DNA of 21,112 nucleotides, taken from the UHGV virus genome UHGV-0072395; one strand, written 5' to 3'. This DNA comes from a virus. A program made the position numbers. The stretch's first letter is position 1; the number at the start of each line of letters is the position of its first letter. Positions 3,001 through 6,000 of the stretch are shown in pieces.

Positions 3001-6000
3001 AAACCACCCTCGGTCTGGACGGTATAGGTTCTTCCCTCTACTGCGATGGTGTCGCGCAACTGAAGGATATCCGCGTAAATATCGCATAACCGTTCAAGGG
3101 CTAAGGTGTCGGCAACCGTTAGCACCCCCATGCCGTCAAGGAGAACCGTCAACCTTCCCCAGGCAACCTTTCCCCAGTCGGTCAGGTGCGCCGGCGGGCT
3201 TGGAATTTCTCGCGCCGGAGTCGGTTCTTTATCGTTGAGTTTACGTTTACCCGGGTTGCCGGAGACCACTTTGAGATGGGTCGGTTTCGGGCGTCGTCCT
3301 GCCATCGGAACCTCCCAGAAAAAATCTTTTCATTTCGCGGTTTTGTACAAAAAGGATGGGCGGCGGTCATTTGGGGTCAGGCTTTTGGACTTTTGACCCG
3401 CCCTCCCCGTCAGATGAGAACCGAAATAATTTCATGTAAAATGATTTCATTTGCAATCATCTCAGCAATAAAGAATGAGATTCATTATCATTTGAACCAG
3501 TGCGAGTTAGGATCAAGCGGTATGCCGCTCTCATCACAACCGATGACGGTGCCGCGCTTCTCCATTCGCTGCTTGGTGGAGTCATGGTGCTGCTTACACA
3601 GCCCTTGCCAGTTCTTCCGGCTCCAGAAAAGCTTTTGCGCCTTCGCTATTGCCTGGCTGTCACCAGAACGCAGAGCCTCTTTCAGTTTGTGCGGGATGAT
3701 ATGGTCAACCACCGTTGCCGCTGTCACCCTGCCTTGCTCGTGGCACATGGTGCATAAGGGGTGAGCACGAAGGAAGATAAGACGCTCTCTGTCCCATTTG
3801 CTGCCGTAGATGCGGGGCTCTTTGTTCATGCTCCCACCTATAAGATGCGTCTCAGCTGGGCGCGTGTCTGAACCATGGTTTTTTCAACAGACTTTTTTAT
3901 AGCTTTAATCTGATCGAGGCTCAGTGCAGTATCGAGGGAAAGCTTGATAACCAACTCTCTTCCGCTAGTATCACATCCAGGAGAGCTCAGCTTGACAGCA
4001 CCATCAATTGCAATTCGATCCGGAAAGAATTCAGGGAAGTCATTAACCTTTCCACGACATCCAAATGCATCGTATTCTGCGAATCCGGCTCCGCTATGGA
4101 GTTCATATCCGGTCTCTTTCACAATAATACGAAGCGATTTGTTGGCTTCTTTTAGCGTTACATGCTTCATATGCGTTTCCTTTTAGGCGTGAGCCTGTCG
4201 CACGGCAATGCCGCCCGAGAGGTAAACGCTACCTAACGGCATTACCCAGGCTCACTACTGAAAGACTCTCTTAATGTGCGCGTGCGAAGCGCTAAATTTA
4301 TCATTGCGACTGCCGGAGACGGCGGTGGCGGCGGTGGTGGCGGTGGCGGTGGCGGTGGCGGCTTTGGTCTCACGTAATTCTTTGGCGGAGAATTGGGTAA
4401 TTTTCTACTCATTCAATAATTCCCAATAAAAAAGCCCCGCTTATGCGAGGCTCTCACTATTATAAAAAAACTACCAACCAACCTGTTTGATTCCTTTGAT
4501 AATCTCTTCGTCACTTAGGTCGTATTTAAAACGGGCGATTAAATACTCACTATCCTGATAAGAAAATGTTTCAATCGGAATATTTATTTGACCGTGGTTG
4601 CCTTTAGGGTCAACTCCATAACATTGGTAAACATCTAAGTTTTGTTCCATTGTTATGATTTTTGGCTCAAGTCCAGGTAGCAATACCAATACTAATTTAT
4701 ACATTTTTATCTCCTCAACTAACGCAAAGAGACATTATCACAGGCACTCAGTGAATGCCTGCTGTAATGCTTACTGCCGTGTGATGTGCTCATAATGGGA
4801 AATGGTCTTGCCGTTTGCGTTCATCACATAGGCTACCTCTCCCGGCTTCAGGAACACGTTCTGATCCATACCCGATACCGCGATACTCTGCTGGCTAGGG
4901 TTGAAACCAACGCTCAGGCCGCAATGGATTTCTTCGCCGCCACCTGGCGACATCACTTTTACTGTTAACATGCTTCTTCTCCTGCTTCTGGTAATAAAAA
5001 AGGCCGCCAGTGGCGACCTTGGTATAGTTCAGTTTGATTATCAGGACGTATGACACGCGTAACAGCAGTAATAGCAGCCGTTAGATTGTGAATAGGTTTT
5101 CTTGGCTTCACGCACTGCCGGAGCACATGTTTCAAAAATTCCCAGATACAGCCTGTTTTTCTCTTCTGGTAACCGAGTGCACGAACTCACATGTACTTCG
5201 TGATCACCATTTAACTGCGCATTTTTATTGACGTAGTAATACTGTCCCATTGTTGTGTCCCAGAGTGATACTGCTGATTGCAGCATTTTCAATCTACGCC
5301 ATGGCACTTAAGCAATTAAGACGAATCTCATTTAACTATGATTGATATCACTTACTTTTCTGGCGGTTGACTTTCTGATTATTGCCTACTAGCTACATTT
5401 AAGTAAGTATCGAACCAGCAGTCCCTATGATCGCTGCAAGCAGCAAGAAGGAGGCCGCTGTTCTGCGCATTAACACACAATAAAATGAGATTGACATAGC
5501 TACGAAGACAACAATCAAAACTGGCCACATATCCAGCAGGAGAAAAATATAGCCTTCGAAGGCACTGTCAATTAGCACGTCCATATCACTAATTCCTCAG
5601 AAGAAAACCTCACCAAAGGAATTTTATCACGAACAACTAGCGCGTTAACCGCCAATCAGCAAGCATGAATTTACCTATTATTAGTAGGTTTCGTCAGACA
5701 GTTCGCCTGCACTGCTTTGTTGTGCGCCAGAATGTCGCGCTTGGTCTGTTTGTCCAAAACGTCGATGTCGTGGTCGGTCAGGTAGATGATCCGCACCCAG
5801 TTGCAGGCGGTATCAACCACCACCGGGGCGGGTAAACTTTTCGCGCAGCTCCCGATCAACAGCGTCATCAGGCATATGGCTAACTGTTTGCTGTACATCG
5901 CTGGCCCCTTTCGTTGCATCAGCACGGCGTTCTGCCGCGGCGACGGTGGCGGCGGCATTCTCTTCGGTACGTTGCTGTTCGGCTTTGGTTTCTGCCTTAC

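Follow-up and report, generated by a model that had tools for sequence, protein, structure and literature searches.

A widespread pseudoknotted leader RNA that probably masks the ribosome-binding site of accessory genes in lambdoid phages

Introduction

What kind of element is formed by the nested inverted repeats that lie ahead of a small gene in the virus genome UHGV-0072395, and what could it do for that gene? The stretch of DNA analyzed here (the window, 21,112 nucleotides, nt) comes from a lambdoid prophage, of which it forms the late region; the genes lie on the minus strand. A first-pass annotation, made from the sequence alone, had described at 4204-4256 an outer repeat enclosing an inner one, had placed both in the leader of the gene 3838..4170 and had proposed that they could form a structured RNA, either a regulatory element or a processing site.

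The evidence described below points to the two repeats being helices P1 and P2 of a pseudoknotted 5' leader RNA of about 135 nt that belongs to the late operon and acts in cis as a translational gate, a reading to which we give a probability of roughly 0.55. The element is a structured, pseudoknotted mRNA leader of the type that masks the ribosome-binding site (RBS); it is widespread, present in classical phages, unannotated and absent from Rfam. Between the two roles first proposed, the helix predicted to mask the Shine-Dalgarno (SD) sequence favors translational control.

The repeats are the central helices of a larger leader

Both inverted repeats are present, and their placement in a leader stands as well, with the ATG of the gene at 4168-4170 of the minus strand and the repeats 19-87 nt upstream of it on that strand. 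The interval 4204-4256 was incomplete because the left outer arm (4187-4197) sits 7-17 nt to its left, and the coordinates were corrected. The outer repeat pairs gcgtgagcctg (4187-4197) with caggctcac (4247-4255) and is lengthened by a repeat search to 18 nt (4180-4197 with 4247-4264, 83% complementarity); the inner one pairs aatgccg (4207-4213) with cggcatt (4237-4243) and extends to 10 nt at 90% complementarity (4204-4213 with 4237-4246). They correspond to P1 and P2, which are only the central helices of an element that is larger (135 nt) and represents a widespread family (Table 1). In the window, the segment conserved in BLAST matches covers 4176-4296, about 120 nt.

Folding, the check proposed at first pass, gives a stable structure for 130 nt of the sense strand (dG -48.7 kcal/mol), which on the window alone is only moderately unusual (z -2.6; 2 of 200 shuffled sequences fold as well). 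The antisense strand folds slightly better (z -3.9), and this speaks for taking the repeats as a palindrome that arose by chance, as a terminator or attenuator of the intrinsic kind, or as an antisense feature of the plus strand. Such an explanation is hardly credible in view of the massive conservation and covariation described in the next section, with G-U pairs that fit the minus strand only. The covariance model (CM) built here finds a single copy in the window, on the minus strand, with 130.9 bits (E 4e-30) against 28.4 bits on the plus strand.

Other simple explanations of the locus were considered and rejected. The promoter and terminator scan found nothing at the element, neither an antisense promoter nor a terminator. 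An intrinsic terminator at 4187-4256 was discarded, as the scan showed no site there and the stem is followed on the sense strand by GCCUAAAAGG, with no U-tract. An internal promoter found no support either, the linker after the small 5' hairpin H1 having no conserved -10 hexamer in the alignments. In sequence type A, an ATG at the start of H1 opens a 16-codon open reading frame (ORF). A leader peptide was nevertheless rejected too, as HK620 and phi80 lack this ORF and in type B it ends prematurely.

Pairing is kept by compensatory changes

The idea of a structured RNA depended on relatives keeping the potential to pair, and they do so by compensatory changes in hundreds of homologues. The alignment built on the model comprises 96 distinct sequences. 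Of its 2490 cells 98.7% are paired, and double changes are seen in 16 of 26 pairs; none of 500 shuffles reaches the observed value on any of five measures, and slid registers pair at 40-50%. The paired cells include 187 G-U against 9 A-C combinations (98.7% paired when read on the sense strand, 91.5% on the antisense strand), an asymmetry that indicates selection on one transcribed strand, the minus strand.

The changes are distributed over the helices. In H1 (helix 1 of the alignment), 3 of 3 pairs change on both sides, with CG to UA double changes, already visible in the first-scan alignment of 62 sequences, and G-U wobbles in relatives. Several positions of P2 show three to five pair types (AU/GC/GU; AU/CG/GC/UG) in both the first-scan and the model-based alignments, the former having AU/GC/GU, AU/UG/GC/CG and AU/GU/UG at three positions. 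The P3 stem occurs as GGU/ACC, GGC/GCC and GUC/GAC, with extra pairs inserted in Yersinia and Chlobot copies. Four of the seven P1 pairs (helix 5) never vary in the 96-sequence alignment; different P1 arms were found in the captured locus L232 (GAACCUUG/CAAGGCUC), in L265 (GGGUGAGCCA/UGGCUCACCC), whose P2 is wholly different and still paired, and in the P22-like subfamily, termed family II (GAGCCUUUG/CAAAGGUUC, with the variants GAGCCGUUG/CAACGGUUC and GAGCCCUUG/CAAGGGUUC).

These substitutions bear also on an explanation at the level of DNA, according to which the segment is mainly a conserved linker or boundary that serves lambdoid phages as a junction for homologous recombination, or as a homing-endonuclease target, in the swapping of accessory-gene cassettes, and its folding as RNA is incidental. 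The element does lie at a mosaic boundary, with 120-135 nt common to phages whose flanks are unrelated; some of the genes behind it are free-standing nuclease genes (T5orf172/GIY-YIG-like, HNH_3), and 5'-truncated copies with new upstream DNA occur (L285, L288). A recombination linker would, however, be expected to keep its sequence, whereas here six helices have gathered compensatory substitutions in pairs, and the strand asymmetry of the G-U pairs argues against a role of the DNA alone. Incidental folding is thus improbable, and a role of the DNA could coexist with that of the RNA.

The Shine-Dalgarno sequence is paired at a fixed distance from the start codon

The helix that favors translational control is the basal one, P0, part of the minimum free energy (MFE) structure, in which the strand UCUUUCAG (anti-SD) pairs with the SD strand CUAAAAGG. 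It corresponds to helix 2 of the CM alignment and is 100% paired there. The anti-SD, YCUUUCAG, is invariant across the relatives except in L176, where YCUUUCAG/CUAAAAGG is replaced by GCACAUAG/CUAUGUGG, both strands having changed together in double changes. For the free fold of the window, the SD is predicted to be unpaired with a probability of 0.20, which becomes 0.46 with the anti-SD blocked; overall the corresponding values range over 0.02-0.25 and 0.45-0.84.

The distance from the SD to the ATG is 7-10 nt in 196 of 201 unique elements. The SD is paired with an upstream strand in a conserved structure and keeps its position relative to the start codon whatever the gene, two features of leaders that sequester the RBS, and the predicted structure suggests that this leader probably hides its ribosome-binding site. 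If the SD is masked in this way, a change of the anti-SD from UCUUUCAG to AGAAAGUC would be expected to raise expression.

A pseudoknot adjoins the anti-SD

The 5-6 nt that directly precede the anti-SD can pair with the 3' side of the apical loop, and both change together. The complementary classes are CGAGAG/CUCUCG, CCCGAG/CUCGGG, CGAUA/UAUCG, CGAGAA/UUCUCG, GCAGAG/CUCUGC and ACAGAG/CUCUGU, to which are added GAAAG/CUUUC in the type without P3 (including mEp390 and the second copy of phi80) and, in family II, ACCGA/UCGGU and GUCGA/UCGAC. At least 5 contiguous complementary nt are found in 88% of 52 unique combinations of 5' strand and loop, compared with 9% for shuffled 5' strands, and the loops of other classes offer no partner to the AGAAAG and ACGAUA classes, each of which pairs with its own loop alone.

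Since in the MAFFT and CM alignments the register of the pseudoknot's 3' strand shifts between classes, a best-complement search with controls and, in family II, counts of fixed motifs were used. The former led to a mini-alignment of 15 rows in which 91% of cells are paired and all 6 pairs show double changes (reached by 0 of 500 shuffles). The latter, which involve no fitting, showed that in family II CUCGGU is accompanied by ACCGA (35 unique elements) and CUCGAC by GUCGA (50), with 1 exception. The apical loop is thereby seen to pair outside its own hairpin with compensatory change, as in a loop-to-flank pseudoknot. The pairing is absent from the 5'-truncated copies L285 and L288.

A second loop contact is tentative. 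In the window, the P3 loop GCGUUU (4224-4229) is perfectly complementary to the spacer AAACGC (4173-4178) over 6 bp, which become 7-8 bp in close relatives, and the repeat search widens the match to 15 nt (4173-4187 with 4215-4229, 73%). Among relatives the types of loop and spacer change in step, as GGCG(A) with (U)CGCY in types A, F and D, as GCGG with CCGC, and as GGCG with CGCC in P22. Of 128 elements that have P3, 109 carry CGC in the spacer, as against 0 of the 73 that lack P3, counted over sequences that are not independent, and in a global shuffle test the loop-spacer complementarity was not significantly above that of shuffled spacers (3.83 vs 3.73). The contact between the P3 loop and the spacer is accordingly regarded as a tentative second pseudoknot.

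The position of the first pseudoknot, whose 5' strand directly abuts the anti-SD, and its maintenance across at least eight sequence classes invite a reading as a riboswitch-like device that senses a ligand, a protein or temperature, with pseudoknot and SD masking mutually exclusive. The conserved single-stranded segments (the bulge GUGMGA and the GGG after the 3' strand of the pseudoknot) would suit such a sensor, and rha, one of the genes found behind the leader, is reported in PMC4936722 (citing Henthorn and Friedman, 1995) to depend for its expression on the status of integration host factor (IHF) in the host. The cargo functions, on the other hand, are heterogeneous, none being shared that would point to a metabolite, no ligand or protein candidate emerged, and the exclusivity of the two states is a geometric inference. 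As a separate explanation the sensor is distinctly unlikely; it is a sharper version of the translational gate, not a true alternative to it.

Translational control and RNA processing

The second role proposed at first pass, RNA processing or stability, takes the long imperfect duplex as a site for RNase III or another endonuclease. Cleavage would then separate the mRNA of the lysis genes from that of the cargo and head genes, leaving a stabilizing hairpin and/or switching the RBS of the cargo. From P0 through P1 and the bulge to P2, the duplex comprises about 20 bp of imperfect pairing below the conserved, asymmetric 6-nt bulge and 10 bp above it, dimensions that agree with a (permissive) definition of an RNase III substrate; the leader is placed between functional modules of a long polycistronic late transcript; and P1 and the bulge are conserved in sequence as well as in pairing, which suggests recognition by a protein. 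The bulge is a possible hinge or recognition site. What processing alone leaves unexplained is that the SD always lies in a helix at a fixed distance from the ATG, that the anti-SD covaries with an altered SD and that a pseudoknot is maintained. Processing as the whole function is therefore unlikely, and it is compatible with the translational gate, in which cleavage could be the unlocking step.

Besides the agreement of the duplex with an RNase III substrate, several points weigh against the leader as a translational gate. The basal helix, rich in A-U pairs, is weak, and masking may therefore be partial, and the regulatory effect is deduced from anatomy alone. Most of the search patterns fixed P1 and the anti-SD, for which reason the covariation of these two rests on fewer sequences, found by the CM or within subfamilies, and the close relationship of many sequences makes the shuffle counts overstate independence. 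The pseudoknot mini-alignment was fitted by the best-complement search and the register of its 3' strand is model-dependent, a difficulty that the cross-class and shuffle controls and the fixed-motif test address only partly. ViennaRNA cannot model the pseudoknot; its coexistence with P0, or their mutual exclusion, is a geometric argument and not a computed one.

Distribution in phages and prophages

BLAST matches of about 120 nt at 78-80% identity occur in 53 phage records, including HK620, HK639, phi80, mEp043, mEp213, mEp237, mEp390 and HK106 and phages of Klebsiella, Salmonella, Enterobacter, Citrobacter, Hafnia and Aeromonas, and the leader is found in 516 of 5426 complete Escherichia coli genomes, about a tenth. 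In most of the BLAST matches the region under the match carries no annotated feature. Pattern scans of IMG/VR gave hundreds of copies, and a plasmid collection contributed phage-like records of 30-40 kb as well as the genera Pantoea, Edwardsiella and Arsenophonus. A variant of the leader is present in four Yersinia genomes; their copies and the chance match L125 were all that came from the pattern scan of genome contigs, which was run with a gap of 40-62, the real gap being 36-38. A divergent copy upstream of P22 rha was found by the covariance model (41.9 bits, E 3e-9), and the P22-like family II amounts to 86 unique sequences among the captured loci.

A search of the whole window with the 4227 covariance models of Rfam 15 at the gathering threshold returned only STnc100 and a tRNA, both elsewhere. 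With E up to 10, no family matched the element in window positions 4100-4500 or in the HK620 and P22 copies, the sole matches on it being miRNA-like hairpin noise of 13-19 bits against cut-offs of 60-86. The prophage small RNAs (sRNAs) AgvB, AsxR, Pas and STnc100 were rejected as candidates, since they lie at other positions and belong to different Rfam families. No description of the leader was found in the literature that was searched, by keyword searches (on rha, lambdoid and late operon) or with sequence strings.

In six of the captured loci (L175, L255, L260, L263, L268, L280) the lower stem is near-palindromic (CCUUUCAGAAAG...CUUUCUGAAAGG), so that the pattern matches both strands; the antisense pseudo-matches from such copies were filtered out.

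Cargo genes behind the leader

In HK639, HK620, phi80, mEp390, Hafnia phage yong1 and P22 the leader follows the lysis cassette or a terminator and comes directly before the first accessory gene. HK639, phi80 and yong1 have rha at this place and HK620 has a KilA-N gene, with other genes elsewhere; altogether the cargo forms 20 unrelated protein clusters, including Rha with ORF11CD3, KilA-N with ORF11CD3, ANT, T5orf172/MUG113, HNH_3, an N15 gp59-like protein, a GT2 glycosyltransferase and small proteins without assigned function. In the window the cargo is a 110-aa ORF with no Pfam or PHROG match; the same protein stands behind the same leader in L033, and a 111-aa protein takes the same position in E. 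coli 2017C-4173W12.

Two leaders precede two different genes in phi80, L119 and L134, and the leader behaves like the head of a repeated 'cargo cassette'. In phi80 (L003) the copies at 2373-2511 and 794-917 stand before rha and before the N15 gp59-like ORF x171.28, respectively. Two copies, often of different sequence types and each ahead of an accessory gene of its own, are also present in L149, L232, L265, L176, L162, L218, L314, L329 and L330. The cargo of, for example, L160, L162 and L072 resembles free-standing homing-endonuclease genes (T5orf172/MUG113 GIY-YIG-like, HNH_3). The position of the leader at mosaic breakpoints together with nuclease cargo suggests a link to cassette mobility.

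The leader also touches on the annotation of rha. In P22 (L291, NC_002371) it covers 3502-3650, and the annotated start of rha (orf201) at 3576 falls inside it; a start consistent with the model is the AUG at about 3645 of L291, after AAGG and a CGCC spacer. The Rha coding sequences annotated in HK639, phi80 and several E. coli plasmid-like records overlap the leader as well. The annotated Rha N-termini are probably over-extended, and recognition of the leader improves the annotation of Rha start codons, including that of P22 orf201.

Comparison with known systems

The leader resembles other RBS-masking leaders with long-range contacts and is a member of none of them by sequence or covariance model. 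Imperfect hairpins cut by RNase III in polycistronic phage transcripts are known from the lambda N-leader and from the R1.1-type sites of T7. They share with the present element a long imperfect hairpin with an internal loop or bulge, immediately upstream of a gene, that influences access to the RBS or, in the leader, is predicted to do so; the leader, however, has no sequence or CM similarity to them and adds a covarying pseudoknot and an explicit anti-SD, in many phages and before unrelated genes.

In the activator pseudoknots of the replication-initiator mRNAs of IncI-alpha (ColIb-P9 repZ) and IncB (pMU720 repA) plasmids, a GGCG loop pairs with a CGCC-type sequence beside the RBS of a tightly controlled gene, an RBS that is otherwise buried in a helix. 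Most relatives of the leader, including P22, have a GGCG P3 loop facing CGCC or CGCU just 5' of the AUG, a contact that is tentative. In contrast to the plasmid systems, the leader lacks a leader peptide and an antisense RNA partner, its GAGAG/CUCUC contact lies 5' of the anti-SD, and there is no homology. As regards the peptide, no conserved upstream ORF runs through the element: the H1 ATGs are not conserved and the stops differ.

In the hok/sok toxin mRNAs and in the ROSE and fourU thermometers, translation is kept off by intramolecular pairing that includes the SD. The leader is similar in its predicted long-range pairing of the SD over a potentially toxic product and in an A-U-rich SD helix that could melt or be remodeled. 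It differs in architecture and sequence, in having no evident antisense RNA and in lacking any Rfam match, and the thermometers are short and free of pseudoknots.

The c4 RNA of phages P1 and P7 (Rfam C4, RF01695) is a processed antisense RNA that acts in trans through two target loops and controls icd-ant. Both would have in common that genes of antirepressor type (Ant, KilA, Rha-like) of temperate phages are controlled at the RNA level from an upstream position, whereas the leader would act in cis, has an intramolecular pseudoknot and gives no match to Rfam C4 even at E up to 10. The two-stem put RNAs of HK022 and HK639 are conserved RNAs of lambdoid operons that act in cis, as the leader would, and HK639 has both. 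They are located just downstream of the early promoters, whereas the leader follows the lysis genes in the Q-antiterminated late operon and immediately precedes an RBS with which it is predicted to pair; an antitermination role for it is neither needed nor indicated.

Proposed mechanism and significance

As a translational gate, the leader would be transcribed within the phage late operon (minus strand of the window) with its ribosome-binding site locked by default in the basal anti-SD:SD helix, a lock to which the contact between P3 loop and spacer may add. Acting in cis, it would allow accessory genes, many of them toxic (Rha, KilA-N, ANT, nucleases), to be translated at a low level or under certain conditions. 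Because the 5' strand of the pseudoknot directly abuts the anti-SD, the pseudoknot would either close a compact locked fold or compete with SD masking in an ON/OFF switch. In the first case the hairpin would fold back at the conserved bulge and the pseudoknot may clamp the locked form; in the second, it would pull the anti-SD from the SD and represent the ON state. Candidate triggers are RNase III cleavage, temperature or Mg2+, and a host factor.

A more far-reaching and doubtful proposal is that the leader is a portable signal-responsive switch, in which pseudoknot and SD masking are alternative states whose balance is set by a host condition or factor, with a possible route from IHF to rha. 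The rha genes of phi80 and P22 are described in PMC4936722 (citing Henthorn and Friedman, 1995) as harmful in IHF-deficient hosts, with the statement that 'IHF regulates rha'. That the leader is a candidate site for this regulation is speculation; by eye, the IHF site WATCAANNNNTTR has no match in the linker, which is variable.

If the leader is such a signal-responsive switch, a single RNA device would govern many unrelated accessory, toxic and selfish genes across prophages of Enterobacterales, and lambdoid phages would exchange it together with or independently of accessory genes. The leader occurs in textbook phages (P22, phi80, HK620, HK639 and the mEp series), yet it is unannotated. It provides a concrete, mutable RNA structure with which the restraint of rha, kilA-like, ant-like and nuclease genes can be studied, offers a handle on the old Rha/IHF phenotype and marks the mosaic junction at which cargo cassettes are swapped. 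As a compact module that would lock the RBS before unrelated genes, it is also a possible part for synthetic biology.

Genomic surroundings

Table 1. Features of the leader element, listed 5' to 3' on the minus strand (mRNA sense), and of neighboring genes in the window
Feature	Position	Strand	Basis or remark
Whole leader element, 135 nt	4165..4299	-	From just 5' of H1 to just past the start codon; covariance model, 130.9 bits
H1, small 5' hairpin GCGC-UUCGCAC-GCGC (GCGC-N7-GCGC)	4278..4292	-	RNAalifold
Variable C/A-rich linker	between H1 and pseudoknot 5' strand	-	Alignments
Pseudoknot 5' strand GAGAG	4266..4270	-	Partner CUCUC 4217-4221; covaries with the loop in at least 8 sequence classes
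Anti-SD UCUUUCAG	4258..4265	-	Partner CUAAAAGG 4179-4186 (helix P0); MFE structure; invariant except in L176
P1 5' arm GUGAGCCUG	4247..4255	-	Right outer repeat; covaries in the P22-like subfamily, L232 and L265
P2 5' arm GGUAAUGCCG	4237..4246	-	Holds inner repeat cggcatt; several P2 positions with 3-5 pair types
P3 apical hairpin AGGUA-GCGUU-UACCU	4220..4234	-	Loop GCGUUU 4224-4229; stem covaries
Pseudoknot 3' strand CUCUC, then GGG	4217..4221	-	3' side of apical internal loop; covariation with pseudoknot 5' strand
P2 3' arm CGGCAUUGCC	4204..4213	-	Holds inner repeat aatgccg; covariation, repeat search
6-nt bulge GUGCGA between P2 and P1	4198..4203	-	GUGMGA, GUACGA or GUGCGAA in all alignments
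P1 3' arm CAGGCUCAC	4189..4197	-	Left outer repeat, outside the interval first described; repeat search
SD strand of P0, CUAAAAGG	4179..4186	-	SD AAGG 4179-4182; MFE fold, relatives
8-nt spacer between SD and AUG, AAACGCAU	4171..4178	-	CGC core found only in elements with P3 (counts in the text)
Start codon AUG of the cargo gene	4168..4170	-	ORF
Cargo gene, 110-aa ORF, function not assigned	3838..4170	-	ORF list
HNH protein	3488-3829	-	Pfam
Small terminase	2841-3305	-	Pfam
TerL	1151-2887	-	Pfam
Intrinsic-terminator-like hairpin AGCCUCGC-AUAA-GCGGGGCU, then UUUUUAUU	4433..4452	-	Sequence reading
Rz-like spanin	5813-6088	-	Farther upstream, along with small genes lacking assignment

Upstream of the leader, the terminator-like hairpin listed in Table 1 ends the gene 4471-4704, and weak Rfam matches to the terminator ends of sRNAs fall there. 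Equivalent upstream hairpins are annotated as terminators in HK639 and phi80, and the U-tract of an intrinsic terminator lies at most 45 nt upstream of the leader in 77 of 204 unique relatives. In the window, hairpin and leader are about 130 nt apart with unique DNA between them. This segment (4297-4430, ~130 nt) has no match in E. coli genomes and may be a hypervariable insertion. It contains a (GGCGGT)n simple repeat at 4320-4361 (6.8 copies), which creates a 56-aa polyproline ORF (4242-4412, minus strand) that ends at a UAA (4242-4244) in P2, and a polyglycine ORF on the plus strand (4276-4377). The polyproline ORF, though it runs into P2, was rejected as part of the mechanism, being a product of the simple-sequence repeat and limited to the window.

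The HNH gene and the small terminase gene are separated by 180 nt of non-coding DNA (3306-3487). In HK97-like phages that pair an HNH protein with the terminase, cos usually lies in the gap between the two genes. Upstream of the leader and in the same orientation, the window carries the sRNA STnc100 at 8847-9071 (minus strand, 90.1 bits) and a tRNA gene at 9121-9194 (minus strand), a location that is the usual place of the pR'-proximal late-leader RNA in lambdoid prophages.

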